Positions 1-64,000 of a stretch of 64,000 nucleotides of DNA are shown here, in pieces; the stretch's first letter is position 1, and each line of letters opens with the position of its first letter. The translations under genes were made by a program, and so were the position numbers. Under the pieces are notes generated by a model, which searched no databases, had not been told where the DNA came from, and saw nothing but the letters and a program-made list of their open reading frames with translations. Source of the stretch: a virus; the IMG/VR virus record IMGVR_UViG_3300021963_000062, positions 33,016 to 97,015 of that record; one strand, 5' to 3'.

Positions 1-162
1 CCAACCTTCCTGCCGTCCTTTAAGATAAAAACGGGTGCCTGATATACATGAGTCTTCAGTGAGAGCCGAGACCAATCCATTTCCTTCTTTGTCATAACTA
101 TCCCAGAGAAATTTTCCTTGTTCAACACGGAACGCATCATCAATCCATTGAATTTCTTGCAT
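1..162 (-). CDS. hypothetical phage protein, truncated by window edge
   Basis: Read by hand from ATG at 162: MQEIQWIDDAFRVEQGKFLWDSYDKEG..., open to position 1. Confidence 0.65.
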   Translation of the reverse strand, partial: MQEIQWIDDAFRVEQGKFLWDSYDKEGNGLVSALTEDSCISGTRFYLKGRQEGW

Positions 163-172
163 TTATATCTTT

Positions 173-394
173 TTAAAGTTGACTCGGACATTTACTTACC
201 ACCATAGCAATGGCAGCAGCTTCAATAGCAGGAGAAGTGGAGATTACTCTCCTCACATTTGACCCGCCATATTTATCGTTAGCCTTACTATAGGCAACTA
301 GAACTGATCGCAGAGTGTCCATACCTTTATTACGATTCGCACAAAAGTCTACTGCGACAGTATTCAATAGTGTCAGTAAAGTTAGTTCAGCCAT
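173..394 (-). CDS. hypothetical protein
   Basis: 73-aa ORF in a tightly packed minus-strand run. Confidence 0.65.
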   Translation of the reverse strand: MAELTLLTLLNTVAVDFCANRNKGMDTLRSVLVAYSKANDKYGGSNVRRVISTSPAIEAAAIAMVVSKCPSQL

Positions 395-557
395 CCCCTT
401 TAATACTTAAGGTGTAATCTTTCTTTGTTAGTTTATGTTGTTTTACGAATCTGTCAACATGATCTTTACATTCAAACCAACAGATTCGTTTTTCTTTACC
501 CTCCTTCAGATCCACTCGGAAGATGAAGGTTTCATACGGAAATTTTTCGTCAGTCAT
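387..557 (-). CDS. small hypothetical protein (56 aa)
   Basis: Read by hand: MTDEKFPYETFIFRVDLKEGKEKRICWFECKDH...; overlaps both neighbours. Confidence 0.6.
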   Translation of the reverse strand: MTDEKFPYETFIFRVDLKEGKEKRICWFECKDHVDRFVKQHKLTKKDYTLSIKGDG

Positions 558-718
558 TAAGTGGGTTGTTCCTGCCTTTGAGTATAGACCACATCAAAGA
601 GTTCGTCAAGTATTTCGTTACACTCGTGATACTCTTTACCATCAAGCAAAGTCTTCTCGAATTGATAACGACGAACTGCAGTGAAGATTAGTTTATATTG
701 TTCGGGTGTAAAGTTCAT
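557..718 (-). CDS. small hypothetical protein (53 aa)
   Basis: Read by hand: MNFTPEQYKLIFTAVRRYQ...; TAATG overlaps at both ends. Confidence 0.6.
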   Translation of the reverse strand: MNFTPEQYKLIFTAVRRYQFEKTLLDGKEYHECNEILDELFDVVYTQRQEQPT

Positions 719-1191
719 TATTCTCCAAGTGTGTGAATGACAGGTTTTTCGTGGGCAAGGATATGATAAAGGTCTGGGTTCTTTGCTGCTGATACAGGAA
801 CAAACTCCGTCTCAGGATTAAACTCTTCATCACGAATTGCCTGGTTAATGACAATGGAACCTTCCTCCCCAGAATAAGACCGATGGAAAGTCATTTTAGG
901 GATCACCAGAGCCCCAGAAGAACGATTGAGATGAACGATATGATACGGATAACGCCATTCTGGGTTTACCAGTTCAAATGTGCGAATACCAGACAGAACA
1001 CGATTATGATCTACCTGGTGATAATGAATATAAAATTGTTTAGCTCCTACAATATCATCAGGTGGTGAAATAGCAGCACCAGTATGAATTACAAGATCTT
1101 GTGCGTTTGAGTTTTCTACAGAGATGTCATAGAATACAACTGCATCTGTTTCCCTGAATACTCTATGTTTTTTAAAGTGAACTTCGCTCAT
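718..1191 (-). CDS. conserved cyanobacterial/cyanophage protein, cupin-like
   Basis: FRET..VVFYDI and YIHYHQVDHNRV...FHRS His pattern suggest a cupin fold. Confidence 0.6.
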   Translation of the reverse strand: MSEVHFKKHRVFRETDAVVFYDISVENSNAQDLVIHTGAAISPPDDIVGAKQFYIHYHQVDHNRVLSGIRTFELVNPEWRYPYHIVHLNRSSGALVIPKMTFHRSYSGEEGSIVINQAIRDEEFNPETEFVPVSAAKNPDLYHILAHEKPVIHTLGE

Positions 1192-1388
1192 CAGTCGTAG
1201 GTGTTTTGCTCCTGTTGCAATCTATCTATATAAAAATAAATGGTAGCATTTGAATACTGAAATTCTTCAAATCTATGAGGTTTTTTCTCCTTCATCTTGG
1301 TCAACATATTAATCCAGTCGTATCGTTTGTCAACGACCCAACCATAATGTTGTTCATCCTGAAAAAGATCATACTTAGTTTTCATCAC
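1191..1388 (-). CDS. hypothetical protein
   Basis: 65-aa ORF with coupled overlaps. Confidence 0.6.
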   Translation of the reverse strand: MMKTKYDLFQDEQHYGWVVDKRYDWINMLTKMKEKKPHRFEEFQYSNATIYFYIDRLQQEQNTYD

Positions 1389-1609
1389 TCAAACTCCCGA
1401 GTCCTGTTAATCCTTTGAACTGGAGGGGTATAAGGGGGAATAACCTCACAAGTCACACGAATATCAGAACCTTTGGTTGCTTCAGCCATCTCACGATAAC
1501 CAAGACCAACATAGATCTGTCCACCGACTACGGCAACTGCCATGGATCCCCAGAAATAATAATACCACTTAGTTTTTACTTGGTGGCGTAGAATCTTATT
1601 GACTTTCAT
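1385..1609 (-). CDS. small membrane protein
   Basis: Hydrophobic WYYYFWGSMAVAVVGGQIYVG segment. Confidence 0.6.
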   Translation of the reverse strand: MKVNKILRHQVKTKWYYYFWGSMAVAVVGGQIYVGLGYREMAEATKGSDIRVTCEVIPPYTPPVQRINRTREFE

Positions 1610-1749
1610 TTGAATACAGCGGTAACTCCGACTACTTTGGCATTAGGATTGCGGGCAAGGGCAACTTGTCTTGCTTCTTGATAGTCACGGGCTTGTACTT
1701 CTTCTTTGAAGACCTTACCTGCAACATAAAGGGTAACTTCACATTTCAT
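1606..1749 (-). CDS. small conserved phage protein (47 aa)
   Basis: Read by hand: MKCEVTLYVAGKVFKEEVQARDYQEARQVALARNPNAKVVGVTAVFK; ATGA overlaps on both sides. Confidence 0.65.
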   Translation of the reverse strand: MKCEVTLYVAGKVFKEEVQARDYQEARQVALARNPNAKVVGVTAVFK

Positions 1750-1928
1750 TTTAAATAATGTTCTTTATCAGTATCAAATTCAATCCATTTAGCATCTTTC
1801 ATATTAAGGCACATTAGAATTGTCTCATGTTCCCGATGTTCTCGTGGTGTACCACGATACAGGTATCTCCTTTGATACGCACAACACCAGACATTATAAT
1901 AGATCTTAGCTTTTTCAGAAAGAGCCAT
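1746..1928 (-). CDS. hypothetical protein
   Basis: 60-aa ORF in operon. Confidence 0.55.
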   Translation of the reverse strand: MALSEKAKIYYNVWCCAYQRRYLYRGTPREHREHETILMCLNMKDAKWIEFDTDKEHYLK

Positions 1929-2172
1929 TTCCTAGTCGTTCAAAACAAACACTGTTAAACTTACCCTCTACACCGCGAAGAATAAGTTTGGTGTGGGAAG
2001 ACTTTATAATTATTTGTTGAACAAAGTAAACTCCACCAGGAACTAACAGATGTTCTGGATCTGTATTATTTCCCCAAGCAACTTGTTCTTTAGAACACCC
2101 AACAAATTTTACAAAGTCTCCCTCTTTGATTTCACCATAAGAGAATTTTGGAATCTTAAGATCTTTCTTCAC
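1915..2172 (-). CDS. hypothetical protein
   Basis: 85-aa ORF in operon. Confidence 0.6.
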   Translation of the reverse strand: MKKDLKIPKFSYGEIKEGDFVKFVGCSKEQVAWGNNTDPEHLLVPGGVYFVQQIIIKSSHTKLILRGVEGKFNSVCFERLGNGSF

Positions 2173-2411
2173 TTCTTTTCCTCTTTTGGTTGCACTTTCT
2201 GTTTGGTAGGATCTGCATAAGGGACTCGTCCCTCTTTCTCGTACATCAGTATATCATACTTAAACTTGCACTCATGGGGTTTCTGATTGCAAAGAATCAG
2301 TGTGTCATTGATTGCACGATGAGATCCAACGGCAGAACCAAGTGAACTTCCTAAGAGCAATGTAAGTCCAAACATCCCAATGTTTTTAAGATTTAAAGAA
2401 CGTTCAACCAT
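2169..2411 (-). CDS. hypothetical membrane-anchored protein
   Basis: Likely start MVERSL at 2411; N-terminal hydrophobic segment. Confidence 0.5.
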   Translation of the reverse strand: MVERSLNLKNIGMFGLTLLLGSSLGSAVGSHRAINDTLILCNQKPHECKFKYDILMYEKEGRVPYADPTKQKVQPKEEKK

Positions 2412-2436
2412 AATGAATTTCAGAAGTCTTTTTATT

Positions 2437-3609
2437 CTAATGTATTTCATCTGGCCAGTCAACCCTGCCAGTATAATCTCTAAAAATCCATTTACCCAAT
2501 GAATTCGTTGAAACTATTAAATCAGCAGAAATAACTTTTTTCCTCTTATAAACTGTGAAAAGAGAACTCCAATTAGAAATTGATTTAACTACCGTTTTTG
2601 AATAACAACCCGCCATCAGATCAAATACATTTTCAAAGATTTTTATAGTTCGAAGTAAGTATTTTATTTTAAATTTTTCTTTTGGTATTTTATTTTGATG
2701 TAAAGTTATAAACTTCTTAAGATAATAAGACTTATCAATTATATTATTTGGATATCTATCATAATAATATGAATAATACTTTTTAGGAATGTCAGAACTA
2801 ATATAGATTTTTTGATTAGGATTTTCTGAAAGAATAAAATTATCAATCAAATTAAAATAATCAGAGTCTGGTATAATTTTATACCTATTAACCCAATCAA
2901 AATCATTATTAATATTTTCTGATTCAAAAAATATTTTTTGTCTGTTTTTATCTTTTTTTAATAACATATCATAATACTTATATTTTCCAGAATTTCTATA
3001 TTCTTTTCCCAATCTATTTTTATGAAAATTTTCCCAATAAGAATCTATTGTTTCCTTTGGTAAAATTTTTTCTATTTCATTCAAAAATTTTTCAGTGGGA
3101 TATGTACCCAGCCCTCTGCGTAAATGTATGCAACAAACATCGGAAAACTCATTTTCCATAAAATTAATAGCTGTTGTCAACTTTAATTTTATTTTAGATA
3201 CACAATTGTGCAGTATTTCTTTATATGTTATATTTTTATAATCAAAAAAATGATATAAGTGATCAAAACAAGAGATAGAAAAGTCAAGATAATAATAAGT
3301 ATTTTCAGAACTATTTTTATAATCAAATTGTTCTGTTAAAAGAATGTCTCTAAATTTTTCACACGTTATTGGAATTAGTTGATTATTAGATGATTTTAAA
3401 ACCGAAACATCTTGAGCTGTAGTATTTGGCAAATTAATTAATAATAGTTCAGGCCAATAGTTATCTTCCACAATTATTTCAACATCTTTAATAATTGTAG
3501 AAAAATAATATGCTAGACTCCAAATAGCAATTCTATCTCCAAATCCACTGTCATGTTCAAATAAGTTATTACCCGCCCATGGTTCAAAACATATTAGTTT
3601 TATGGACAT
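2437..3609 (-). CDS. GT-B fucosyltransferase-like protein (NodZ/GT11/O-FucT-like)
   Basis: SGFGDRI, CIHLRRG and KIYISSD resemble fucosyltransferase motifs; very low GC. Confidence 0.55.
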   Translation of the reverse strand: MSIKLICFEPWAGNNLFEHDSGFGDRIAIWSLAYYFSTIIKDVEIIVEDNYWPELLLINLPNTTAQDVSVLKSSNNQLIPITCEKFRDILLTEQFDYKNSSENTYYYLDFSISCFDHLYHFFDYKNITYKEILHNCVSKIKLKLTTAINFMENEFSDVCCIHLRRGLGTYPTEKFLNEIEKILPKETIDSYWENFHKNRLGKEYRNSGKYKYYDMLLKKDKNRQKIFFESENINNDFDWVNRYKIIPDSDYFNLIDNFILSENPNQKIYISSDIPKKYYSYYYDRYPNNIIDKSYYLKKFITLHQNKIPKEKFKIKYLLRTIKIFENVFDLMAGCYSKTVVKSISNWSSLFTVYKRKKVISADLIVSTNSLGKWIFRDYTGRVDWPDEIH

Positions 3610-4574: not shown

Positions 4575-4806
4575 TATTTTTAATAAATTCTTTTTCTAAT
4601 TCTTTTGCAAGTTTCATCGCTCTTCTCCACATTAAATATTTTACTATGGGATTACGAGGATTATTTAATAACCACCATTTGGTTTTCCCATACTCAAATT
4701 TCAAAAGTTTAGTAATAAAATAAAATGATCTTGCAACACTATCATCAGTTATGATAAAGTATGCAGCTATTACAAAGAGAAAAAACCAAATAGAATAATA
4801 TTCCAT
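4567..4806 (-). CDS. small membrane protein
   Basis: N-terminal TM helix, WW..NP.NP motif. Confidence 0.6.
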   Translation of the reverse strand: MEYYSIWFFLFVIAAYFIITDDSVARSFYFITKLLKFEYGKTKWWLLNNPRNPIVKYLMWRRAMKLAKELEKEFIKNND

Positions 4807-4807
4807 A

Positions 4808-5175: not shown

Positions 5176-5215
5176 AGATAATCACTAAACACTTAGTAAT
5201 TATAAGTTATTTAGC

Positions 5216-7429: not shown

Positions 7430-7431
7430 AG

Positions 7432-7638
7432 TTAAAATCCCTTTGATTTTGTTTTGGGTTTCTTTTTATCAAGAACTTCAAACAGATCTAGTTGACCAGT
7501 GGATGACCATTGGAACCAATAAACCTGGGCATCCTCCCAGTTATCAAACTCCATCGTCTTTCCGTTCTTAAAGAATAATTTATAGTCATGTCTATTATAA
7601 GGTAAATCAGAAGTTTGTGCAAAAGTTTTAATTGTCAT
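7432..7638 (-). CDS. hypothetical protein
   Basis: 68-aa ORF, ATGA coupling. Confidence 0.6.
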   Translation of the reverse strand: MTIKTFAQTSDLPYNRHDYKLFFKNGKTMEFDNWEDAQVYWFQWSSTGQLDLFEVLDKKKPKTKSKGF

Positions 7639-8183
7639 AATAAAAGTCCTTTCAAAAGATGAGTAGCCTCAGAGAACCTATCAACATAATGAACTAAGTC
7701 CATATCTTCACTACTAATGAATCCATTATCAAGCATTTCTTCCTCAATCCAATGTTTGAGTGTTCTCCACATTCTACCAACACAGATAATTGGTTTCTTA
7801 TCCATGTGACTGACTTGAACTAACTGATAGATCAATGCCATTTCTAGGAGAGTTCCTACACCACCAGGAGTAACGATAAACGCATCGCACTCTGCGAATG
7901 TCTTAAGTCTGGAGTAGAAAGTCTGGTGTTTTTCATACTCCTGAACATACTTATTAACTCCTTCCTCAAAGGGAAGATAGATTGCTTCTGCAATAGAACA
8001 GAGGTGATCTCCACCGCATCCTTCTATTGCACCCTTATTGGCGGCTTCCATAGTTCCAGGGCCGCCTCCAGTTACTACTGTCCAACCTTGTGCAGAGATA
8101 TTTCTTCCGAGTTTTTCTACTGCCTTATAGAGATCGGATTCCGGATTCGTTCTTGCAGAACCAAAGATTGCTACTTTTTTCAT
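7635..8183 (-). CDS. LOG-family (lysine-decarboxylase-like) nucleotide phosphoribohydrolase
   Basis: FGSAR, TGGGPGTMEAANKGA and PGGVGTLLE (PGGxGTxxE) motifs. Confidence 0.88.
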   Translation of the reverse strand: MKKVAIFGSARTNPESDLYKAVEKLGRNISAQGWTVVTGGGPGTMEAANKGAIEGCGGDHLCSIAEAIYLPFEEGVNKYVQEYEKHQTFYSRLKTFAECDAFIVTPGGVGTLLEMALIYQLVQVSHMDKKPIICVGRMWRTLKHWIEEEMLDNGFISSEDMDLVHYVDRFSEATHLLKGLLL

Positions 8184-8830
8184 TTAAGTTTATAGACGTA
8201 AATGTGTTTACCAGGGGTTTCAATGTACTTTGCATCACCACTTTCCAAAGCATCTTTAACTCTTTGTGCGAAAGGCTTGAGATTTTTATTCCCATACCTA
8301 TCTATATGATAAGTTCGGATACATTTATCGTGATATATCTTACCATCATAATCAATAACACGACCCTTGGCAGTCATGCCACAATGTTCAAAGTTGGATG
8401 CCTTATAGATTGTACCCTGATGATTATGAAACGTGTCTGCGTAGGATACAACAACCTTATATGATGTGTTCTTCTTCAACCACCTCAGAGTTTTTCCAAT
8501 AAAATAACTCTCAGTATTTCTAGGAGTATTATCAATACAACAAAGACGACGTAGTTCTACAACTTGATCCTCAGAATCTGCATACTTTTTCCAAGTATTA
8601 GCCATTCCTAAAGGGCCATAGATCATAGCACCAATAAGATTTTCATTATAAAATAAACCAAAAACATTAGAGATTCTAAGACCATTAACATTAGAAGAAT
8701 AATGCCAAGTTTCAACAAAGTCTCTAACGTATTGAATGGTAGTAGGTTTGACTACAAAATCCTTTACGTTTACATCCCTGCAGTCAAGTTCTTCAAACAG
8801 TAGGGATGATAAAGGATTCATAGTGTTCAT
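8180..8830 (-). CDS. Mom-like GNAT DNA adenine-modification enzyme
   Basis: HYS, ELRRL...PRNTESYFI, VVSYAD...H.GTIYKASNF; start could be 8821, 8830 or 8833. Confidence 0.78.
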   Translation of the reverse strand: MNTMNPLSSLLFEELDCRDVNVKDFVVKPTTIQYVRDFVETWHYSSNVNGLRISNVFGLFYNENLIGAMIYGPLGMANTWKKYADSEDQVVELRRLCCIDNTPRNTESYFIGKTLRWLKKNTSYKVVVSYADTFHNHQGTIYKASNFEHCGMTAKGRVIDYDGKIYHDKCIRTYHIDRYGNKNLKPFAQRVKDALESGDAKYIETPGKHIYVYKLK

Positions 8831-9335
8831 CAAATTTTTTCTTTAGTTCGTCCCTAATGATAATTTTAACATCATTTACATGAGAAAGAAAGTCTTCCCA
8901 TTTATTCTCAACACCAAGATATTTAAAAATAGCTATTCCATGAAGGTGACGAATACCATCCTTCATGTAATCATTCTTTTTTCGATCTTCCCAATATGCA
9001 TAAATAGGAATCTTATTCTTTTCTGCGGCAGACTCCTTCAATTTAACATTGTTAGCCTTTTTAGAAGAAGAATTATCAGTCGCAGGATTCTTTTTTTGTT
9101 CAACAACGATACTAGAGTTCTCCCAATCAGTCTTACATCCAACTCCAAGATGTTTTGCTTCGGGGTCTGGATCCCACTCAGGAATTACTTCTTCAATATA
9201 ATCTCCAATTAATTGGGCAATACGACTGCCAAGAAACACACCACGATTTTCGGAAAGATCCAGTAGAAAATCATAATCAAACTGAGACACATCATAATTT
9301 TGGAGACGAGTCTTCAGGTTGTCAAGAGCAGACAT
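8793..9335 (-). CDS. putative PD-(D/E)xK restriction-like endonuclease (Eco47II-like)
   Basis: IGDYIEE...KTD...VVEQKKNPATDNSSSKK resembles the E..D..ExK..T(D/M)NSSS pattern. Confidence 0.55.
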   Translation of the reverse strand: MSALDNLKTRLQNYDVSQFDYDFLLDLSENRGVFLGSRIAQLIGDYIEEVIPEWDPDPEAKHLGVGCKTDWENSSIVVEQKKNPATDNSSSKKANNVKLKESAAEKNKIPIYAYWEDRKKNDYMKDGIRHLHGIAIFKYLGVENKWEDFLSHVNDVKIIIRDELKKKFDEHYESFIIPTV

Positions 9336-11013: not shown

Positions 11014-12075
11014 TCAAAGTGCATTACCCCTTGGAAGTACTTCCTCTGGGAACACGAAGTTCTCATGAGGTTGGTCTACTGGTGCCATCCAAGCACGTAA
11101 ACCTTCGTTGAGCAAGATGTTCTTAGTATAGAAAGTCTCAAACTCCGGGTCTTCGGCCGCACGGATTTCTTGTGAAACGAAATCATATGCACGAAGATTA
11201 AGAGCGAGTCCAATGATACCAATAGAACTAGTCCAAAGACCCATAACGGGAACAAAAAGCATGAAAAAGTGAAGCCAACGCTTATTACTAAAAGCGATTC
11301 CAAAAATCTGAGACCAGAATCTGTTAGCCGTGACCATTGAGTAGGTCTCTTCTTCTTGGGTAGGTTCAAATGCCTTGAAGGTATTTGACTGATCACTGTC
11401 TTCATAAAGTGTATTCTCAACTGTTGCACCATGAATAGCACAGAGCAGTGCTCCTCCTAGTATACCAGCAACTCCCATCATATGGAAGGGGTTGAGTGTC
11501 CAGTTATGGAAACCTTGTAGGAATAGGAGGAACCTAAAAATCGCAGCAACACCAAACGACGGCGCAAAGAACCAAGATGATTGTCCGAGTGGATACATGA
11601 GAAACACACTGACAAAAACAGCAATAGGCCCAGAAAACGCGATAGCATTGTACGGTCTAATTCCTACTAAGCGAGCAATTTCAAACTGACGCAACATAAA
11701 ACCTATAAGACTGAAGGCTCCGTGGAGCGCCACAAAAGTCCAGAGTCCCCCAAGTTGGAACCAGCGGACGATATCTCCCTGAGCCTCAGGGCCCCAGAGA
11801 AGAAGAAGAGAATGACCCATAGAATCTGCTGGAGTACTAACTGCCGCAGTAAGAAAGTTTGCGCCCTCAAGATAACTGGATGCAAGGCCATGAGTGTACC
11901 AACTCGTAACGAAAGTTGTCCCAGTAAGCCAACCACCAAGAGCAAGATAAGCTGTGGGAAAAAGAAGTAATCCAGACCAACCAACAAAAACGAAACGATC
12001 TCTCTTAAGCCAGTCGTCAAGGACATCAAACCACCCCCTTTGTTGAATAGGTTGTTTTAGTGCAGATGAAACCAT
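11014..12075 (-). CDS. psbD: photosystem II D2 protein
   Basis: [16 protein letters not shown]...[10 protein letters not shown]. Confidence 0.99.
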
Positions 12076-12165: not shown

Positions 12166-13245
12166 TCAACCGATTGCAGGTGCGGTGAGTGCAACAGGAG
12201 TTGACTCAGCAGCAGCGAGGTCAAGAGGGAAGTTGTGAGCATTGCGCTCGTGCATTACCTCCATGCCCAGACCAGCACGGTTCAGAACATCAGCCCAAGT
12301 GTTAATAACTTTACCCTGACTATCAACGATAGACTGGTTAAAATTGAAACCGTTGAGATTGAAAGCCATCGTGGAAACACCAAGAGCGGTGAACCAGATA
12401 CCAACTACAGGCCATGCAGCAAGGAAGAAGTGCAGTGAACGAGAGTTGTTGAACGATGCGTATTGGAAGATGAGACGACCGAAGTAACCGTGAGCGGCTA
12501 CAATGTTGTAGGTCTCTTCTTCTTGTCCGAACTTGTAACCGTAGTTTTGGGACTCGTTTTCTGTTGTCTCACGAACGAGACTAGAGGTGACGAGAGATCC
12601 ATGCATAGCAGAGAAAAGAGAACCACCGAAGACCCCAGCAACTCCCAACATGTGGAAAGGATGCATGAGAATGTTGTGTTCCGCCTGGAAAACAAGCATG
12701 TAGTTGAAAGTTCCCGAAATCCCCAGAGGCATTGCGTCAGAGAAGGATCCTTGACCGAAGGGATAGACCAGAAAAACTGCGCTAGCAGCAGCAACGGGTG
12801 CGCTGTAGGCAACACAAATCCAAGGACGCATACCAAGTCGGTAAGAAAGTTCCCATTCACGGCCCATATAAGCATAGATACCAATTAGGAAGTGGAAGAC
12901 AACAAGTTGGAAAGGCCCACCGTTGTAGAGCCACTCATCTAGGGAAGCAGCTTCCCAGATGGGATAAAAGTGCAGTCCAATCGCGTTGGACGAAGGAATC
13001 ACAGCACCAGAGATGATGTTGTTTCCGTACATGAGTGAACCAGCAACGGGTTCACGGATACCATCAATGTCCACAGGGGGAGCACCGATGAATGCGATGA
13101 TGAAACAAGTCGTAGCAGCAAGCAGGCAAGGAATCATCAGGACTCCAAACCAACCAACATAAAGACGATTGTCGGTGGAAGTAACCCAGTTGCAGAACTG
13201 TTCCCAAGTATTTGATTTTTGTTGACGTGAAATTGTAGCAGTCAT
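12166..13245 (-). CDS. psbA: photosystem II D1 protein, uninterrupted
   Basis: NRLYVGWFG...[13 protein letters not shown], full C-terminal extension. Confidence 0.99.
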
Positions 13246-18243: not shown

Positions 18244-19662
18244 TTAATTAAAAATTTTTACGTTATAAGTCTTTTCCCATTCTATCATATTACTATGATC
18301 GTTGACAATAGGATATCCTTTAATGTTCAAACTAGTATTTAAAAGGATTGGACAACCGGTTTTATTTTTCCATTGAAATAAAAGATCATAAAACTTTGGG
18401 TTGTCCTTCTTACTTAAAACCTGAACTCTACTAGTACAATCAACATGTTGTATAGAAGTCAACTCTTTTGATTTACATCTTACAGCAAACTGCATATACT
18501 TATTACCACCTTCAAAATATTCCTTGGCATATTCTTCCAAAACAACTGGTGCAAATGGTCTGAACTTTTGTCTTTTTTTTATCTCATTGACTTTATCTTT
18601 TATAAAAGGATCTCTAGGATCTGCAATTAAACTTCTATTACCTAAAGCTCTAGGGCCAAATTCCGATTTGCCCCTTGCAATACCACAAACTTTTTTATCT
18701 AAAAGATAATCAACAATTTCTTCATTTGTAGAGTTATATCCCATATCATATCCAAGATATGGTCCTTTCCAATCAATGTGTTTTTTCTTATGTGCAAGAA
18801 CCGATCCAATAGAAGAACCACTATCTCCAGGAGAAGGCATAATCCATATATTATCATAATAATTGTATGCAATTGGATTTGCAGAACAATTCAATGCACA
18901 TCCGCCCATCACTACAAGATTATCAGACTTAACCAAAGATTTAGATTTCTCTAATACATTTTTGAATAAAATTTCATAAACTGATTGTGTTCCTGCAGCA
19001 ATATCAAAATAATCCTCTTCCGTTTTAAGATCCGATCTCCAATTTAAACAACCTTTATGAAGATTATTTTTAAACCTAAGATCTTCCCCAATAAAATCAT
19101 CAAAAATATCACAAGTCAATCTACTAGGATCTCCATAAGCAGACATACCCATCAGAATATATTCTTCTTCGTTTGGTTTCAGTCCGCACCTTTGTGTCAT
19201 TGCAGAGTACCAAAGTCCGATACTATGTGGATAATTACGTTGAAATTTTAGTTTTAACTTGTTTCCCTGAGCTTCCCAGATTGTGAGTGTTTGAAATTCA
19301 CCTATAGCGTCAATAACCACCACGCAACATTCATCAAACTCGCTGGTGAAATAACCAGCACAAGCATGAGTATAGTGATGATCATAATACTTGATTGGAA
19401 CATCAACATACTTTTTGACGTTCTGGATCCAACCCTGGCCCGCAAGAAGTTGTCTAAGTGTTTTCTTATATGGGTTCTCATACCAACATACTAGCTCTGG
19501 TTTCCCAAACTTTAGTGCATAGTTGATTATGCCATCATTCAACTGAGAATCATTTTTGACGCCACTAAATCTCTCACTTTCACTTGCAAAAACAAGAGTG
19601 TCCTTAACAAAAACCGAAAGTGCAGCATTGTGACTTTCCGATGATATTCCCCAGGTTATCAT
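18244..19662 (-). CDS. O-carbamoyltransferase (NodU/CmcH family)
   Basis: HHYTHA, DAIGE, GGCALN, PGDSGS, EFGPRALGNRS, FRPFAP, LLNTSLN. Confidence 0.93.
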   Translation of the reverse strand: MITWGISSESHNAALSVFVKDTLVFASESERFSGVKNDSQLNDGIINYALKFGKPELVCWYENPYKKTLRQLLAGQGWIQNVKKYVDVPIKYYDHHYTHACAGYFTSEFDECCVVVIDAIGEFQTLTIWEAQGNKLKLKFQRNYPHSIGLWYSAMTQRCGLKPNEEEYILMGMSAYGDPSRLTCDIFDDFIGEDLRFKNNLHKGCLNWRSDLKTEEDYFDIAAGTQSVYEILFKNVLEKSKSLVKSDNLVVMGGCALNCSANPIAYNYYDNIWIMPSPGDSGSSIGSVLAHKKKHIDWKGPYLGYDMGYNSTNEEIVDYLLDKKVCGIARGKSEFGPRALGNRSLIADPRDPFIKDKVNEIKKRQKFRPFAPVVLEEYAKEYFEGGNKYMQFAVRCKSKELTSIQHVDCTSRVQVLSKKDNPKFYDLLFQWKNKTGCPILLNTSLNIKGYPIVNDHSNMIEWEKTYNVKIFN

Positions 19663-23223: not shown

Positions 23224-24015
23224 CTATGAAGTTTGTTGTTGAGCTTCTGATGTCCTTCCAAGATATGGATCATAATCCATAAGTTTTTCAATTTCTAGAT
23301 CAGAACCACGAGTCTCCCAGAGATTTCTCAATCCATCATGAGATCCTCTGTGGAAAATCTCAATGTGTTCTGGATGAATGGAAGAACCCAATTCAATCTT
23401 ATACAAGAAAAGAGGAATTGCAAAAGTATTTCCAGAATTATAAATCAAATCATCTGCAACTGCACGAGGTTTAATTTGATAATCAAGTTTATACTTATCT
23501 CCACGACAATGGAATCTTACAATCTTTTCTGCATGGTGACGAGTAATTACATAACAAGCAGTAGAAAAATCATTGACAAATCTACGATGTAAGTTTACAT
23601 GAAGAGTTCCTGGACAAATAATAGCAAGTTGAACTACATCATAATCATATGGAAGTCTTGCAACAAATTGGCTCCAAGTAAAATTCCAATACTTTGCAAT
23701 ACTAATATCTACATCGTCTTCCATGACAACACAATACGGTGCATCAGAAGTTTCCAAGAAATGTTTGAGTAGTTTAAGGTGAGAAGTAACACAACCAATC
23801 TCACCAGAACTCATTCCTTGTGGATATCTGCCATGGATAATATCACTCAGATCATCATCTCTACCATCATACGCAGAGATTCTTTCATAATTTTCAATCT
23901 CCCAGTGTGCAAACATGTCTTCCATATACTGTTTGCGTTCTGGTTGATCATCTAAGTTGATATAGTAGATAGGACCAATACCTTTTAGTTTGTATGCGGA
24001 CTTATTTTTATCCAT
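23224..24015 (-). CDS. glycosyltransferase family 25
   Basis: YINLD...ER, GEIGCVTSH, EDD, STACY. Confidence 0.85.
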   Translation of the reverse strand: MDKNKSAYKLKGIGPIYYINLDDQPERKQYMEDMFAHWEIENYERISAYDGRDDDLSDIIHGRYPQGMSSGEIGCVTSHLKLLKHFLETSDAPYCVVMEDDVDISIAKYWNFTWSQFVARLPYDYDVVQLAIICPGTLHVNLHRRFVNDFSTACYVITRHHAEKIVRFHCRGDKYKLDYQIKPRAVADDLIYNSGNTFAIPLFLYKIELGSSIHPEHIEIFHRGSHDGLRNLWETRGSDLEIEKLMDYDPYLGRTSEAQQQTS

Positions 24016-24029: not shown

Positions 24030-24884
24030 TCAGAGAACTTCCCAACCCTCACAATAAAGGTCACTAGTATCTTTATCTGCATAAGAAGGACCAAACCACA
24101 TTTTAGGTGCTACAATTTTACCAGCACCATTCTGCAACCAGGCACCCCACCAAGATAGTGAAGAGTTTGCGATAATACCACCTTTACAATTAGCCATGAT
24201 GCAGAGATCGACATAAGGAGTATAGGATCCATCGGGGTACTTTTCTTCTGGAGTAGAAACGTAGAAACGATCTGGTTTGAAAAGTTCTTGTTCCAGAACC
24301 CACTCGGGAGAATCTGAGACAACTACTACTTCTTGATCTTCGGGGAAAAGTGCAAGGGCTTTCTCATAATACTCTAGTGGTTGAGGAGGATGTTGATCAG
24401 AGCATTTGGTATAAGACCACTCAAATCCACGAGCATCCACAAGGTTAGGATCTCCACGACGAACATGGAGAAAGATAGGATCCTTAAGTTCACTAAGAAA
24501 TCCTTTTACTGGAACACTTAAATCATCATGAAATGTAAAATCTTTACGAATCTCATCTTTAATATGTGCAAAATATTTTTCCGTCTGGAAGAATCCATGA
24601 ATGGAAACATCATTTGGACAAAGATCTAGAAGTTCTTTATCAAAGTGATATTGTTTTTCAGCAACAATAGGAGCGAAACCACGATCAAGCAAATACAAAT
24701 TTGTTGATTTTACAGACTCAAGAGTAAAACAATTTGCTAGACTATAATTATCAATTCGTCTTTCACCAAAAGGTGGGATGCACCAATCATAACCTTTAGC
24801 GGCTGCAATACCTCTAAGAGCCGCATACTGAAACATTTGGTTGCCTAAGCGACCATTATTTCCAAGTTCGTTAAACGCTAACAT
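24030..24884 (-). CDS. alpha-1,2-fucosyltransferase (GT11)
   Basis: GRLGNQMFQYA, HVRRGD, IIANSSLSWWGAWL. Confidence 0.9.
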   Translation of the reverse strand: MLAFNELGNNGRLGNQMFQYAALRGIAAAKGYDWCIPPFGERRIDNYSLANCFTLESVKSTNLYLLDRGFAPIVAEKQYHFDKELLDLCPNDVSIHGFFQTEKYFAHIKDEIRKDFTFHDDLSVPVKGFLSELKDPIFLHVRRGDPNLVDARGFEWSYTKCSDQHPPQPLEYYEKALALFPEDQEVVVVSDSPEWVLEQELFKPDRFYVSTPEEKYPDGSYTPYVDLCIMANCKGGIIANSSLSWWGAWLQNGAGKIVAPKMWFGPSYADKDTSDLYCEGWEVL

Positions 24885-28120: not shown

Positions 28121-29263
28121 TTAAATATTAATTGACATTATACTAATATCTTTAGGTGGTTTACCAAATCTAACTTTGTCGCCATACTTCTCAGATAGAT
28201 GGTCCAATTGTTTGATGATAGATTCAACGTCATCAATGTAAACGGTATAACCTTCATTCAGAAGATCTACACAAAGACGGTATTGTTGACTCTCGGTTAG
28301 AATATCAGTTCCTTTTTTATAGGAAACATATTCAAAATAAAATGGGCGACTATCCGTATTTTTCTTTAAGAAATACTTTTTGAGGAACTTTGCATGTTCA
28401 TCATTAAAGTTATCAGTAGTCTCACCCAAATTATAATTCAAACCTTGTTTCTTTGCAAATGCAGCAAAGGATCGGTTATCTCTTGGAAGACATGGGCCAC
28501 CAAACCCATATCCATAGTTCAAATATTTATTACCAACTCTAGAGTCGTTGCCGATGGCATTAAGAACGGTCTCAATCTCATTTTCCAAACCAGCCATGAT
28601 CATTACTTCACCAACCATGTTTGCATAACTGATCTTAGTAGTCAGATAACAATTCACTGCGAGTTTAACAAGTTCTGCAGCAGTTGTTGACATGCAACTA
28701 ATCTTTGGTTTGGTAACTTGAATCTTCTTATACATCTCAGATAGAGAATGCATAACTTCTTCATTATCACCACCGATCAGAACCATATCTGCATGAGTAA
28801 GATCTTTAATGATGGATCCCTGTGCGATAAATTCTGGATTGTAAATAACACTTACACCATAAGACTTAAGTTGTTCTTGGAACCTTGCACAATCTCCTGG
28901 ATTTGTAGTACATCCAACAACAAATGTCTTACCAGAAACATCACCAGCAGTTTGAATATCGCGGATGACATCATAGACTGCGTTTACATTATAAGAACCA
29001 TCATCTAAAGATGGAGTTGCAACAAGAGTAAAGATAATATTACACTCTCTGATAACTCTTTTATTATCAGTTGTCGCTTCAATGTTGCGAGCTTCTTTCA
29101 AGTGTTCTGCAACATGAGGTTCCGCAGTTTCTATGATTTTTTTATTGAGGTTTTCTACATAATCCTCACGAATGTCTGAGACCAGGACATCATATCCTGC
29201 ATTCTCCATAAGGAGTGCAAGACAGATTCCCAGTCTCCCTGCGCCGATTAATCCTATTTTCAT
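28121..29263 (-). CDS. ugd: UDP-glucose/GDP-mannose 6-dehydrogenase family
   Basis: GAGRLG, NPEF, AELVK, GFGGPCLPRD. Confidence 0.85.
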   Translation of the reverse strand: MKIGLIGAGRLGICLALLMENAGYDVLVSDIREDYVENLNKKIIETAEPHVAEHLKEARNIEATTDNKRVIRECNIIFTLVATPSLDDGSYNVNAVYDVIRDIQTAGDVSGKTFVVGCTTNPGDCARFQEQLKSYGVSVIYNPEFIAQGSIIKDLTHADMVLIGGDNEEVMHSLSEMYKKIQVTKPKISCMSTTAAELVKLAVNCYLTTKISYANMVGEVMIMAGLENEIETVLNAIGNDSRVGNKYLNYGYGFGGPCLPRDNRSFAAFAKKQGLNYNLGETTDNFNDEHAKFLKKYFLKKNTDSRPFYFEYVSYKKGTDILTESQQYRLCVDLLNEGYTVYIDDVESIIKQLDHLSEKYGDKVRFGKPPKDISIMSINI

Positions 29264-33876: not shown

Positions 33877-34927
33877 TGTTCTTTTTAGCAATTTGTTCAG
33901 AAATCCATGCGTATGTCTTACGAATACCTTCCTCAAGAGTCTGTTGATAATCCCAACCGAGTTCTCTACGAATTACATCGTTGTTGGAATTACGTCCACG
34001 AACACCAAGAGGAGCATCTAGTTTATGATTCTTCTCTACGTTCTTACCAGCAACCTTTGCAGCAGTCTCTACCAATTGGTTGATAGTGACCATTTCTTCG
34101 GAACCAATATTAACTGGGCCAATGAAATCCGAATCCATCAATCTTCTAGATGCTTCAATGCATTCGTCAATGTACAGGAAGGAACGAGTTTGTAGGCCGT
34201 CTCCCCACACCTCAATGGTTCCACCTTCCTCTGGGAGGAGAGCGACTTTACGGCAGATTGCAGCTGGTGCTTTCTCTCTTCCACCGTCCCAGGTTCCTTC
34301 TGGTCCAAAGATATTATGATACCTAGTAACCCGAACAGGCATCCCGTAATTACGATGATAAGCGAAAAAGAGTCGCTCTGAGAACAACTTCTCCCAACCA
34401 TATTCAGAATCTGGGTTAGCAGGGTAGGCTGATTCTTCACGGCAGTCAGGGTTATCTGGATCTAGTTGATTATGTTCTGGATACATACATGCCGATCCAG
34501 AATAGAAGATTTTAGTTCGAATTGTACCGACTCTTTCATTCATCTGACGTTGCATTTCAAGAACATTCAGATTAATTTGAACTGAGTTGTGCATAATGTC
34601 TGCATCATTTTCTCCAGTAAAGACAAAACCTGCACCACCCATATCAGCAGCGAACTGATAGATTTCATCAAAAGGTTGGATATAACGATAAGGAACATGG
34701 TTATAAAAATTACCACGGTCTCCCTTATATTCCAGAACACGACGAACAAAATCTACATCACGAAGATCTCCGCGAATAAACTCATTAGCTGCAGAGTCAG
34801 AATACTCCGGATATTTAAGGTCTACACCACGAACCCAATATCCTTCGGATCGCAGTCTCTTAACCATATGACTTCCAATAAAGCCACCGGCACCGAGTAC
34901 AAGTGCCTTCTTAATATATTGACTCAT
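33866..34927 (-). CDS. GDP-mannose 3,5-epimerase-like NAD epimerase
   Basis: GAGGFIG, ADMGG, SAC.YP, YGWEK, GGREKAPAA.CRK, GVRGRNS. Confidence 0.88.
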   Translation of the reverse strand: MSQYIKKALVLGAGGFIGSHMVKRLRSEGYWVRGVDLKYPEYSDSAANEFIRGDLRDVDFVRRVLEYKGDRGNFYNHVPYRYIQPFDEIYQFAADMGGAGFVFTGENDADIMHNSVQINLNVLEMQRQMNERVGTIRTKIFYSGSACMYPEHNQLDPDNPDCREESAYPANPDSEYGWEKLFSERLFFAYHRNYGMPVRVTRYHNIFGPEGTWDGGREKAPAAICRKVALLPEEGGTIEVWGDGLQTRSFLYIDECIEASRRLMDSDFIGPVNIGSEEMVTINQLVETAAKVAGKNVEKNHKLDAPLGVRGRNSNNDVIRRELGWDYQQTLEEGIRKTYAWISEQIAKKNNEN

Positions 34928-37505: not shown

Positions 37506-37683
37506 CCTCTTGGTCAAGGTCTCCATATGCATTCTCCACGTAGGGTCCGTGTGGTCGTTTGGCGTCTTCTCGGACATAATTGACTTCAGATACGCTTGTT
37601 GATAACCATAGTGATACTTTCATTACTATGTAGATAATTGCAAGAGGGAGAAAACACAAAGAAAGGATTAGTGCATGTTTCAT
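37492..37683 (-). CDS. small membrane protein
   Basis: N-terminal TM, acidic tail, ATGA coupling to gnd. Confidence 0.6.
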   Translation of the reverse strand: MKHALILSLCFLPLAIIYIVMKVSLWLSTSVSEVNYVREDAKRPHGPYVENAYGDLDQEDEDY

Positions 37684-58541: not shown

Positions 58542-58681
58542 AAAAATCCCCTGAACTTAGTGTGTACTAAACGAAACAAACCGAAGTTTTGTTTAAAAGT
58601 AAAGTAATCACCAAGTCCAGAGGACTCGGACTATGTAGATTCAGATCAAAAGATCAAGAATCAGTAATAATTGTATCTTAT

Positions 58682-59350: not shown

Positions 59351-59361
59351 TGTTGTTCTCC

Positions 59362-60033
59362 TCAGTCAAAAATTCTACCCCAACCATCGTTGCCACCTGG
59401 GCACCAACGATGCTTAAGAACTGCTTTGGTGTAAATGGTTTTCTTACCATTTGTTACTGGACCGGTATAGTTATCGTTTAGAGAACCATATGGATCGTTG
59501 ATATAGTAACCCTTTCCATCTGGGGTCTTTCCTATAACAACACACATGTGCCCACCAGTAGGTGCAGAAAGAGAACCCCTATGGAGTATGCCAATAACAA
59601 CGGGCTTCCCAGCGTCCAGACTTTTATCAATATCAGCAAAAGATAGATTGTAACTAAAGTGTGACTTAACACCATAAGCTGCCAGAACTTTCGTCTGTAC
59701 GGCATGGTCAGTCGTATCACCAATCTCAAATACTTTCTTGACATACTCATCATCGCCCTTGATGCTGCCTGGCTTGAGGAAAGACAGACACATAGCACAC
59801 GATGAAGAGTTGCAAGTTCTATGTGCATCTCTATAGTTGTCTACTTGATTGTAGTAAGGGACTGCGAGAACTTCTGGAGTAGGGGGTTTTGTTCTAAAAA
59901 TTCCAATCCATTCGGATTCAGAATCATCCATGAATTGTGCAGGAAGGTTATCCTCTAACCATTGAACTGCAGCTACATGATTCGCGTTATTATCATCATA
60001 ATACTTGAAGAAGTTATGAAGATCTAAAGTCAT
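59362..60033 (-). CDS. C39-like cysteine peptidase
   Basis: VPYYNQ, TCNSSSCAM, GHM, NDPYG. Confidence 0.8.
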   Translation of the reverse strand: MTLDLHNFFKYYDDNNANHVAAVQWLEDNLPAQFMDDSESEWIGIFRTKPPTPEVLAVPYYNQVDNYRDAHRTCNSSSCAMCLSFLKPGSIKGDDEYVKKVFEIGDTTDHAVQTKVLAAYGVKSHFSYNLSFADIDKSLDAGKPVVIGILHRGSLSAPTGGHMCVVIGKTPDGKGYYINDPYGSLNDNYTGPVTNGKKTIYTKAVLKHRWCPGGNDGWGRIFD

Positions 60034-60067
60034 AGATATTCTTTTTGCGACACTGAGGTATTTAGTA

Positions 60068-60712: not shown

Positions 60713-60743
60713 ATTCTTTAGATACTATATTTCTAATAGGTAT

Positions 60744-61310
60744 TTATGATCTACCACCCCATTGGATATCAGGATAAGCATCAGATACATTTTGTTTAGT
60801 AATATTATACTTAGTTTGAAGTTTTTTATCTTTAACAAGAATAAGGATTTCCGCTTCGAGTGGGTGCAATCCTTCAAGAATATTAATAAACATCATCTCC
60901 CTCTTTCTGTTAGAAAGACGATCATTACCACCTTTTACAAAATTATAAAAATAAGTGTACTCTTGACGAATAGAAGTTCTACCTTGATCTTGAGATCCAA
61001 TAGAATTGGAATGCAATTCATCCATCATCTCTACAGCCCTATTAATATTGTCGCTGAGGTTACCAGAAGAAACATTTTGTTGAGAAACACTACCATATGG
61101 GACAAGACCCTCTGGTAATTCAGAAACAATAGTTTCATCAAAATTCCAAATAAGAATTGTAGTTAATGATGGATGGGCGTATTTTTTAAGAATCTCTGCC
61201 TTTTTTGCATTTGATTTTTGTTTTGCGACAAGTGCAAGAACTTCGAAAGCAAAAGGATTGGAGGGTAGATCTTCCGAAACTACCCTCGGAATTTTAGTTT
61301 GAGTAGCCAT
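60744..61310 (-). CDS. conserved T4-like phage protein
   Basis: WNFD....LPEG.VPY, RE.MFI..LEGLHP.EA. Confidence 0.7.
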   Translation of the reverse strand: MATQTKIPRVVSEDLPSNPFAFEVLALVAKQKSNAKKAEILKKYAHPSLTTILIWNFDETIVSELPEGLVPYGSVSQQNVSSGNLSDNINRAVEMMDELHSNSIGSQDQGRTSIRQEYTYFYNFVKGGNDRLSNRKREMMFINILEGLHPLEAEILILVKDKKLQTKYNITKQNVSDAYPDIQWGGRS

Positions 61311-61347
61311 AAGACTTAGTTCAATTCAGTTGTTATTAATATTTAGA

Positions 61348-62493
61348 TCAGAGTTTGAATCCAGCAAACGTATCTTTCTTTACGTCCTGTTTGATACCAC
61401 CAACAACATAAGATTCTACTTCTGTTTCTTGTGGGGCTACCTGAAGACCCTTAGAAGAGATCCAGTGTTCAGTCCAAGGCAATGGATTGTTCTTTGCGGG
61501 AACATCATAAAGTGGTTTCAACCCAATCGCCTTCATACGACGATTTGCAATCCACTCAACATAGTTATTGAGAAGTTTGTCATTTAGTCCAATCATGGAT
61601 CCATCTCTGAACAGGTACTTAGCCCATTCTTTTTCCTCATTCACACAATTGCGGAAGCACTCCGTTACCCAAGATTCTTCTTCTTGAGCAATTTCTTGCA
61701 TCTCTGGATCATCTCCTTCGCGCCACTTATTGAGGATGTTTTGAGTAATGACAAGGTGCTGATTTTCGTCTCTTGCGATGAGAGAGATAATTTTAGCGGA
61801 TCCTTCCATAAGCTTGAGTTCACCAAACGCAAAGCTGCAAGCGAACGAGACATAGAACCTGATACCTTCAAGAATATTGACATTTGCAACAGCACGATAG
61901 AGTTTACGTTTGAGTTCCTTACGATTATCTTTGGAATATCCCGCACCTTCTTGTGCATGAATCCACTCATTAGAAGTCCCATATTGTTGTGCAGCATTAA
62001 TAAAGTCGTTGTATGCCTCAGTAACAGAGGTTGCACGACTCACAATCTTCTCATCATCTAGAATATGGTCAAAGACTTCTGCAGCATCAGGATAAACATT
62101 CTTAATAATGTATGTATAAGAACGACTATGAATCATCTCCATAAATCCCCAAACCTCCATGCACGCTTCCAGTTCAGGAAGAGAACAGTAAGGGATGAAT
62201 GCCATACCAGGGCCACGACCTTGAACGGAGTCAAGCATGATCTGATACTTCAAGTTGGAAGTAAAAATATGTTTTTGTTCTGGACGAAGTAGTTGATAAT
62301 CACTACGATCCTTCTGGAGGGATACCTCTTCAGGCCTCCAGAAGTATCCGAGTTGTTGTTGAGTCAGTTTATCAAATACTGGGTACTTGTAGTGATCATA
62401 ACGCTGCAAACCTAGTGGTTGACCAAAAAACATTGGTTGTTTGCGGGTATCAACATCTGTACTGGTGTTGAATACGGTCATTCCTTCTACCAT
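61348..62493 (-). CDS. nrdB: ribonucleotide reductase class Ia beta subunit
   Basis: FWRPEE, LDSVQGR, EMIHSRSY, LEGIRFYVSF, RDENQH, VAPQETE. Confidence 0.97.
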   Translation of the reverse strand: MVEGMTVFNTSTDVDTRKQPMFFGQPLGLQRYDHYKYPVFDKLTQQQLGYFWRPEEVSLQKDRSDYQLLRPEQKHIFTSNLKYQIMLDSVQGRGPGMAFIPYCSLPELEACMEVWGFMEMIHSRSYTYIIKNVYPDAAEVFDHILDDEKIVSRATSVTEAYNDFINAAQQYGTSNEWIHAQEGAGYSKDNRKELKRKLYRAVANVNILEGIRFYVSFACSFAFGELKLMEGSAKIISLIARDENQHLVITQNILNKWREGDDPEMQEIAQEEESWVTECFRNCVNEEKEWAKYLFRDGSMIGLNDKLLNNYVEWIANRRMKAIGLKPLYDVPAKNNPLPWTEHWISSKGLQVAPQETEVESYVVGGIKQDVKKDTFAGFKL

Positions 62494-62512
62494 TTGAAAC
62501 TCCTTTTGTATA

Positions 62513-64000
62513 CTAGATTTTGCAGCTTTCACAATCTTCCTCACTGGACTCCATAATTTGTTCAAGTAATTTGTTTAGTTGATCCTTAGTAGTTTCCTCC
62601 TTAACTTCATCAGTCTTATGATCATATGTATTCTGATAATACGATGTCTTCCAACCATACTTATAAGTCCTTAGAAGGTCTTGTGCCATGACTGAAGTGG
62701 GAACCTCATTGTCTGGGTAGTTCTCTGGGTTATAAGACCAGTTGCCACTGATAGCCTGATCAAAGAACTTCTGCATTACAGAGACAATATTAATATAACC
62801 AGTGTTATCAGGCATATCCCACAAGAGAGTATAATTGTTCTTGAGGGAACCATATTGTGGAACAATCTGTTTAAGAGGCCCTTTCTTTGATTTCTTAATG
62901 GACAAGTATCCCCGAGGAGGCTCAATGCCATTGGTGGCATTTGACACAACGGAACTGCTCTCCGATGGCATTTGTGCTGACAGTGTTGAATGTCGTAATC
63001 CAAATGTTTGAATCTCGGTACGTAGAGTTTCCCAATCATAGTTGAGTGTATTAGGTACGATTTCGTCTACATCTTTCTTGTAAGTATCAATAGGGAGAAG
63101 TCCTTGATAATACTTTGTACGATTGAAATCTGTACATGCACCCTTCTCTTTTGCGATTTGATTTGAAGATTTCAATAGGTAATATTGGAATGCTTCAGTC
63201 AAATCATGAACCAAGTTCCAAGACTCCTGAGAGTCATACTTTACACCGTGTTTTGCAAGATAATGTGCAAGTCCGATGTAACCAATACCAAGAGAACGAC
63301 GAGATTTTGTTGCAAGTTCTGCAGCATTTACTGGGTAATCCTGGTAGTCAATCAGTTCTTCAAGAGAACGAACTGAAAGATCACAAAGTTCTTCCAAATC
63401 ATCTAACTCACGAATCTTACCCACATTAATTGCAGAAAGAATACAAAGTGCAATCTCGCCAGCAATATCATCAATGTGTTGAAGTGGTTCTGTAGGAAGA
63501 GTGATTTCCTGACAGAGATTACTCATCCACACTTTATCAATAAAAGAACTGTGAGAATTGCAATGATCGATATTCATAATGTAAATACGACCAGTTTCAG
63601 CTCGTTCTTTCAGAATATCTAGAATAAGTTCTTGAGCCCTGACAGTTTTTCTTGGAATAGACTGATCTCGTTCTGCAGCCACATAGAGATCATCAAACTC
63701 AGGAAGCCCAAAAGCATCAGATACCTCTTGAACATCATGAGGTGAGAAGAGGGACATCTCTTCGTCATTGATAAATCTTTCATAAAAAAGTTTTGAGAAT
63801 TGAATTGAATAATCTAATTTACGAACACGGTTATCTTCAGTTCCTTTATTGTTCTTCAGTACAATAATATCTTCTATTTCTTTGTGCCAAATGGGGAAGT
63901 GAACCGTAGCTGATCCACCTCTAATGCCATTTTGAGTACAGCATCGGACAGTCGCTTCAAACTTCTTGAGGAATGGAACAACACCTGTGTGTTGAACTTC
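62513..64000 (-). CDS. nrdA: ribonucleotide reductase class Ia alpha subunit, 5' part outside window
   Basis: CTQNGIRGG, SNLCQEI, MPSESSS, KTSYY, C-terminal CESC. Confidence 0.97.
   Translation of the reverse strand, partial: EVQHTGVVPFLKKFEATVRCCTQNGIRGGSATVHFPIWHKEIEDIIVLKNNKGTEDNRVRKLDYSIQFSKLFYERFINDEEMSLFSPHDVQEVSDAFGLPEFDDLYVAAERDQSIPRKTVRAQELILDILKERAETGRIYIMNIDHCNSHSSFIDKVWMSNLCQEITLPTEPLQHIDDIAGEIALCILSAINVGKIRELDDLEELCDLSVRSLEELIDYQDYPVNAAELATKSRRSLGIGYIGLAHYLAKHGVKYDSQESWNLVHDLTEAFQYYLLKSSNQIAKEKGACTDFNRTKYYQGLLPIDTYKKDVDEIVPNTLNYDWETLRTEIQTFGLRHSTLSAQMPSESSSVVSNATNGIEPPRGYLSIKKSKKGPLKQIVPQYGSLKNNYTLLWDMPDNTGYINIVSVMQKFFDQAISGNWSYNPENYPDNEVPTSVMAQDLLRTYKYGWKTSYYQNTYDHKTDEVKEETTKDQLNKLLEQIMESSEEDCESCKI

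Follow-up and report, generated by a model that had tools for sequence, protein, structure and literature searches.

Sites for AvaI and AvaII are reportedly counter-selected in cyanophages of Anabaena/Nostoc, as work from the 1980s is said to have found. The avoidance of restriction sites (palindromes) has since been surveyed in virulent double-stranded DNA phages (Rusinov et al. 2018, PMC6286503). GGWCC (GGACC or GGTCC) is the recognition site of AvaII and SinI (PMC7337904, PMC3424549), and both enzymes are included in family PF09570 (PMC3424549). AvaII resembles EcoO109I (RGGNCCY) in its fold and DNA binding, and cutting of GGNCC-type sites leaves a 3-nt stagger (PMC7337904). Eco47II, which cuts GGNCC according to its family description, shares this stagger with EcoO109I and AvaII. 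On the viral side, GGWCC is methylated, as N4-methylcytosine (m4C), by marine Myoviridae-like viral metagenome-assembled genomes (MAGs) (Hiraoka et al. 2022, PMC8919816), independent evidence of a contest over this site in the sea. Here, we describe a cyanophage sequence from which GGWCC has been almost entirely removed. The analyzed stretch, hereafter the window, is 64 kb long with a GC content of 37.4% and comprises bases 33016-97015 of IMG/VR record IMGVR_UViG_3300021963_000062, a 97-kb linear virus contig with a CheckV completeness of 47%.

Depletion of GGWCC in the 64-kb window

The window contains 7 GGWCC sites, next to 46 copies of GGSCC (GGGCC or GGCCC) and 73 of GGCC. An earlier sequence-only reading had proposed window-wide avoidance of GGWCC and had called GGCC and GGSCC common, and both statements hold. 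Under a maximal-order Markov model, 40 GGWCC sites are expected (z-score of -6.5, the minimum among 5-mers). A second null was generated by permuting synonymous codons within each gene over 300 runs, which preserves the proteins and the codon usage per gene. This codon shuffle yields 47.8±4.8 expected sites (z-score of -8.6), with 36 in the lowest run, and GGWCC once more shows the strongest depletion among 5-mers. After codon-preserving correction, the observed/expected ratio (O/E) therefore equals 0.15, far from 1.

The deficit extends to both words and to every reading frame (observed/expected counts per frame of 3/12.9, 0/6.0, and 1/6.4 for GGACC and of 3/15.2, 0/3.3, and 0/3.3 for GGTCC), and the 5.3 kb of noncoding DNA in the window has no GGWCC site at all. 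This argues for an effect at the DNA level rather than a translational codon-pair effect. A purge of the shorter words GACC/GGTC was not seen in the window (299 versus 359 expected; O/E, 0.83).

The trace of this removal is clearest in Gly-Pro codon pairs. Gly codons are mostly GGT (621) or GGA (524), with only 125 GGC and 95 GGG, so that the impression formed by eye of a GGA/GGT majority corresponds to 84% by count. Among the 35 Gly-Pro pairs in the called open reading frames (ORFs), in contrast, Gly is encoded by GGC in 19 cases, GGG in 10, and GGA and GGT in 3 each. The resulting 29 of 35 pairs with GGC/GGG compares with the roughly 32 of 38 counted by hand in the sequence-only reading. In the Gly-Pro frame, 29 GGSCC are present versus 6.9 expected and 6 GGWCC versus 28 expected; the excess of the one equals the deficit of the other, as silent replacement predicts. 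Over the whole window, GGSCC is enriched 2.4-fold (46 versus 19.3±3.8 expected by codon shuffle; z-score of +7.0), and the excess is limited to this frame, with counts close to expectation in the remaining two.

The same replacement is visible at orthologous positions. When the contig was aligned by BLASTN to 109 relative loci, it carried GGGCC/GGCCC in 186 of the 335 aligned cases in which the relatives read GGWCC, and GGWCC in 17. The alignments also display the Gly-Pro sites of psbA, psbD, nrdA, and nrdB that had been singled out from the letters (Table 1). As these replacements change the central W to S and not C to T, deamination of methylated cytosine is not their cause, and deamination-type decay was ruled out. 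Selection at the DNA level against GGWCC, independent of frame and strand and acting through synonymous changes, is well supported.

Table 1. Coordinates of genes, Gly-Pro sites, and residual GGWCC sites in the window
Feature	Position in window	Strand	Remark
LOG/SLOG-family gene	7635-8183	-	Third gene of the cassette; PF03641, E value of 5.5e-22
Mom-family DNA-modification gene	8180-8833	-	PF25680, E value of 1.2e-35; overlaps the nuclease gene
Eco47II-family (PD-(D/E)XK) restriction-endonuclease homologue, 180 aa	8793-9335	-	hhalign, profile search
psbD	11014-12075		
psbD Gly-Pro site	11627-11631	-	GGSCC here; mostly GGACC in aligned relatives
psbA	12166-13245	minus	
psbA Gly-Pro site	12914-12918	-	GGSCC here; mostly GGACC in aligned relatives
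nrdB	61348-62565		
nrdB Gly-Pro site	62210-62214	-	GGSCC here; GGWCC in 78 aligned relatives
nrdA Gly-Pro site	62877-62881	-	GGSCC here; GGWCC in 70 aligned relatives
Residual GGTCC	18761-18765	.	Gly-Pro pair, carbamoyltransferase gene
Residual GGACC	23972-23976	.	Within glycosyltransferase island
Residual GGACC	24088-24092	.	Within glycosyltransferase island
Residual GGTCC	28201-28205	.	Sole residual site off a Gly-Pro codon pair
Residual GGTCC	34302-34306	.	
Residual GGTCC	37544-37548	.	
Residual GGACC	59459-59463	.	

Six of the seven residual sites had been located by eye, all at their correct positions, and only the site at 28201 had been overlooked. A sugar/glycosyltransferase island (18.7-34.3 kb of the window) holds five of the seven. 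The sequence context of phage Mu Mom is not enriched at the residual sites, with flanks judged by eye. Across the full 97-kb contig, 17 GGWCC sites are left (O/E, 0.25). Ten of these lie in a 7.6-kb segment just upstream of the window (contig positions 22801-30400) that has no GGSCC, in contrast to the 7 GGWCC and 54 GGSCC in the other 89 kb (binomial P ~1e-7). Recent import of this DNA or a chimeric assembly is the probable explanation. It encodes GT25-like paralogues and three tandem ORFs of 172-177 aa without a Pfam match; these three hold seven of its ten GGWCC sites, one of them at an identical offset in every copy.

Gly-Pro codon pairs and the spread of the purge

The source virus is a T4-like cyanomyovirus. 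The window encodes psbA, psbD, nrdB, nrdA, a carbamoyltransferase gene, and sugar-tailoring and tail-fibre genes. Among named phages, S-SCSM2R (91%) and DSL-LC03 (84%) come closest by NrdB, followed by S-SKS1 and S-SCSM1; at the nucleotide level, even the nearest available relatives reach only ~80% identity.

Any Gly-Pro codon pair (GGN-CCN) spells either GGWCC or GGSCC, and the latter includes GGCC. A phage is therefore unable to avoid both GGWCC and GGCC without losing the dipeptide. Most cyanomyoviruses avoid GGCC, and the present phage is reversed in that it avoids GGWCC. Pooled over 80 relative loci selected by NrdB, GGCC occurs 226 times versus 560 expected, and Gly-Pro is written as GGW-CCN 495 times versus 450 expected. 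GGWCC itself stands at expectation in these relatives (819 versus 870), including loci at 94% NrdB identity. S-SSM7 and S-SCSM1 contain no GGSCC at all in 100 kb and 50 kb, respectively; in these two phages, as in most cyanomyoviruses, the avoidance of GGCC forces Gly-Pro pairs to GGW-CCN. The GGWCC O/E values of S-SCSM2R, S-SKS1, S-SCSM1, and S-SSM7 range from 0.88 to 0.99 by codon shuffle. DSL-LC03 is under both pressures, with GGWCC at 0 of 27 expected outside the Gly-Pro frame and 24 of 43 inside it, and GGCC at 35 of 86.

Although specific to the lineage in this comparison, the GGWCC purge is common and has arisen in several lineages. An IMG/VR scan covered 114 contigs picked solely for GGSCC at one nrdB site, and its counts are lower bounds. 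At least 40 of them have a GGWCC O/E below 0.3, and among the contigs listed these form 19-24 clusters at 90-97% identity. Together, these purged contigs contain 27 GGWCC versus 233 GGSCC in 317 kb. Contig G417 is an extreme case, with 2 GGWCC versus 48.7 expected in 94 kb (O/E, 0.04).

GGWCC is not the only avoided word. TCGA is the most depleted 4-mer of the window (35 versus 125 expected; z-score of -16), ACGT, CCGG, and GCGC occur at about half of expectation, GTAC is depleted as well, and GTGCAC, GGTACC, and TCGCGA have no copies in the window. GATC, AGCT, GGCC, and TGCA are not depleted here, and several relatives avoid GATC, AGCT, or GGCC. The avoided set comprises CCGG in S-SCSM2R; CCGG, GCGC, and AGCT in S-SCSM1; and AGCT and GGCC in S-SKS1. 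Between this contig and the purged contig G405, observed/expected counts are 76/197 versus 98/107 for TCGA and 146/156 versus 36/106 for AGCT. Such differences in avoided sets between relatives are the pattern expected from differing restriction-modification (R-M) repertoires of their hosts.

Host enzyme or phage nuclease as the agent

A host enzyme of the AvaII/SinI type is the most economical cause of the GGWCC purge, and restriction-site avoidance driven by such an enzyme is, in our estimation, somewhat more probable than all other accounts. Ancestors of the phage would have infected picocyanobacteria with a Type II R-M system that cuts GGWCC (AvaII/SinI/Eco47I specificity). Genomes with fewer GGWCC sites would have escaped cleavage more often, and sites would have been lost through protein-preserving changes. 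In Gly-Pro pairs, the change from GGW to GGS would have been the only silent escape, producing GGCC. This route would have been open because the phage, unlike most of its relatives, is presumed not to be under GGCC restriction. In the two other frames, ordinary synonymous changes would have removed the sites.

On the host side, the nearest matches of the phage psbA are genes of Cyanobium and Synechococcus MAGs (92-94% amino acid identity) with genome-like GC content. Bin names alone hint at a lake, an estuary, and an inland sea as the origins of these bins. A psbA 94% identical to that of the window also occurs on a 49-kb contig (NYUL01000008.1; 40% GC) with a phage-type psbA region in a MAG labelled Gammaproteobacteria; this contig probably belongs to a cyanophage and was binned with a bacterium by mistake. 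GGWCC in host genomes was counted in sampled 20-kb pieces and compared with codon shuffles, because lower-order Markov nulls exaggerate depletion at high GC content. As the sequence-only reading had suggested, candidate hosts were searched for GGWCC-directed R-M systems. Among 401 sampled Cyanobiaceae genomes, only Prochlorococcus sp. AG-409-P03 has a match to the SinI/AvaII family. In this genome (QCKN01000001.1, ~113.7-115.5 kb), the SinI/AvaII-family endonuclease gene is located directly upstream of a C5 methylase gene, beside a GMP synthase gene, and the genomic GGWCC O/E is 0.52. G162, a Cyanobiaceae genome with 49% GC and best protein matches to freshwater Cyanobium/Synechococcus at 78%, has 21 GGWCC versus 65 expected, with every frame depleted and GGSCC raised, a signature like that of the phage. 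No SinI/AvaII- or Eco47II-family match was found in G162, a candidate for carrying a GGWCC system of unrecognised type. The GGWCC O/E of G212 is 0.59. GGWCC-directed systems and their footprints hence exist in the host family, and none is tied to the present phage.

Several points weigh against a host enzyme as the agent. The single SinI/AvaII-family match stands against 400 sampled genomes without one, Eco47II-family matches are absent from all 401, and no GGWCC system is tied to the host of this phage. The 17 sites left in the contig imply that protection is incomplete. Moreover, the phage encodes an Eco47II-family nuclease homologue of its own, and the coincidence of purge and nuclease cassette is not predicted by a model with a host enzyme alone. 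Of the two selectors named by the sequence-only reading, an AvaII-like host enzyme is nevertheless the more probable, with such systems and such depletion shown only for the host family. The other, the phage's own nuclease, has proved a genuine homologue of such enzymes, but a comparison of relatives leans against its role as the driver.

The ORF at 8793-9335 has no Pfam or PHROG match of its own and falls below the gathering score of PF09553, for which one of its homologues reaches an E value of 0.27. A profile built from 20 homologues was searched against 1.8 billion proteins. Of the 20 remote relatives that were scanned, 17 score RE_Eco47II (11 above the cut-off) and one scores RE_EcoO109I (PF14511). 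By hhalign, the phage nuclease family matches 11 PF09553 proteins with 99.1% probability (E value of 1.6e-18) over 143 columns, with a common D...ExK core and an NTDNSSSRK-like motif. Residues D70, E79, and K81 are invariant in the 20 homologues and fall on the D...ExK positions of the aligned Eco47II proteins. The AlphaFold2 model has a predicted local distance difference test score (pLDDT) of 72, below 50 in the catalytic stretch, and its best Foldseek match, a weak one, is EcoO109I. A VIA-align fold search gave helical noise, and sequence and profile searches of the PDB found nothing. On these alignments, we assign the ORF as a genuine Eco47II-family restriction-endonuclease homologue of the GGNCC-type clan, with a cleavage specificity that is a prediction.

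Together with the Mom-family gene and the LOG/SLOG gene that comes after it, the ORF makes up a cassette of three overlapping genes (Table 1). Within the 97-kb contig, no N4/N6 or C5 DNA methylase was found, and the nuclease is partnered with the Mom-family gene instead. The nuclease-Mom pair is kept in five of five IMG/VR carrier contigs tested. DSL-LC03 has a cassette with the same layout (OR003938.1, 68307-69477), in which Mom is 71% identical and the nuclease is barely alignable to that of the window (hhalign, 84%; E value of 7e-6), with a weak EcoO109I match. This suggests that, next to a conserved Mom, the nuclease has diverged fast or been swapped. The 64-kb phage contig G411 has two Mom-family genes, at ~2.1-2.7 kb and 32.9-33.4 kb, in addition to the nuclease.

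The phage might have purged its genome on account of this cassette: its Eco47II-family nuclease would cut GGWCC in the DNA of the host or of rival phages, with the Mom-like enzyme as protection, or an already-purged lineage would have adopted the nuclease at no cost. The nuclease is a true PF09553 homologue, in a clan (Eco47II, EcoO109I, AvaII) that cuts GGNCC-type sites. The large cassette carriers first examined are all purged (O/E of 0.25 for this contig, 0.19 for G405, and 0.39 for DSL-LC03), and the complete genomes of S-SCSM2R, S-SKS1, S-SCSM1, and S-SSM7, all four unpurged, are free of the cassette. S-SCSM2R is nearer by NrdB than DSL-LC03, yet it has neither cassette nor purge. This contig and G405, moreover, have the cassette in common and differ in their other avoided sites. 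However, G411 carries a nuclease 69% identical to that of the window together with Mom, yet it has 53 GGWCC in 64 kb, and its Gly-Pro pairs spell GGWCC 51 times versus 50.7 expected, despite a tolerance of GGCC. GGWCC is likewise undepleted in carriers of a nuclease with 48% identity. Given how divergent the DSL-LC03 nuclease is, self-avoidance would require one specificity to be retained over so large a distance and yet not be shared at 69% identity. Conversely, G417 is purged and has no nuclease or Mom match in its 94 kb, which is weak evidence as this contig is 46% complete. The purged nrdB contigs, at least 40, far outnumber the nuclease contigs of the same collection, 22, most of which are unpurged, so that most purged lineages cannot owe their purge to a close relative of the nuclease. 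In addition, a GGNCC-cutting enzyme would target GGSCC too, yet GGSCC is enriched here. We therefore regard self-avoidance as unlikely. Equally doubtful is the more specific notion that nuclease, Mom-like protein, and LOG form a phage-borne, methylase-free, R-M-like weapon that cuts GGWCC, with the purge as its consequence or precondition.

A third account, in which host or phage exerts pressure on GGNCC as a whole and GGSCC is shielded by a context-specific modification at G-C steps, appears quite improbable. The words with a GC step (GGSCC, GGCC, AGCT, and TGCA) are indeed undepleted, TCGA, ACGT, GTAC, and GGWCC are depleted, and the Mom-family gene could be the source of such a shield. However, GCGC, which is made of GC steps, is depleted; G405 strongly avoids AGCT with a Mom that is 95% identical; and residual CCGG, CCWGG, CATG, and TCGA have no excess of 5' G (0.10-0.14 versus a base frequency of 0.18). 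No shield, whether by a flanking G or by GpC, is visible around surviving sites. A GGSCC excess that is limited to Gly-Pro pairs and equals their GGWCC deficit fits simple replacement.

Finally, an origin without any site selection is hardly credible, whether sought in mutational bias, in a codon-pair bias of translation, or in errors of sequencing or assembly at a modified motif. Methylated motifs are known to provoke basecalling errors, and biases in codon pairs are known as well. However, an artefact is ruled out by signatures shared between independent assemblies and by a GGSCC excess in the silent frame only, as a W-to-S artefact would alter the protein in two frames out of three, and codon-pair bias is ruled out by depletion in all frames.

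Significance and comparison with known systems

The purge is explained by a known principle, textbook anti-restriction, and the features worth following are the Gly-Pro switch and the co-resident nuclease. Gly-Pro pairs act as a binary switch that shows, from sequence alone, which of two restriction specificities a lineage has faced; GGWCC is the avoided word in this lineage and in dozens more, GGCC in most relatives. The avoidance profile as a whole (GGWCC, TCGA, ACGT, CCGG, GCGC, GTGCAC, and GGTACC) predicts the R-M repertoire of the host and could help to pair uncultured cyanophages with their hosts. The purge occurs together with a predicted GGNCC-clan nuclease whose gene is coupled to a Mom-like one, which bears on whether cyanophages use restriction-type nucleases offensively. 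If the phage's own nuclease were the selector after all, a restriction specificity encoded by the virus itself would have left its visible mark in the Gly-Pro codons.

As in phage palindrome avoidance in general, a Type II site is under-represented, its loss is silent and varies between related phages, and other palindromes are avoided too; the depth reached here (O/E of 0.15) and the Gly-Pro read-out set the present case apart. It also resembles what is reported for cyanophages of Anabaena/Nostoc, in that GGWCC has been lost from the DNA of a cyanophage, within a phylum with well-known AvaII isoschizomers. Those phages, however, are said to infect filamentous freshwater hosts with identified enzymes, whereas here a T4-like cyanomyovirus of picocyanobacteria is concerned, with a host enzyme that is presumed. 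The link to AvaII/SinI lies in the site itself and in the homology of the phage ORF to Eco47II-family proteins. Unlike AvaII/SinI, EcoO109I, and Eco47II, the phage protein does not reach the Pfam cut-off and has a Mom-like partner instead of a C5 methylase. The marine Myoviridae-like viruses that methylate GGWCC (PMC8919816) defend the same site and are of the same kind and habitat. They mask GGWCC by m4C, whereas the present phage, in whose contig N4/N6 and C5 methylases are absent, has removed it.

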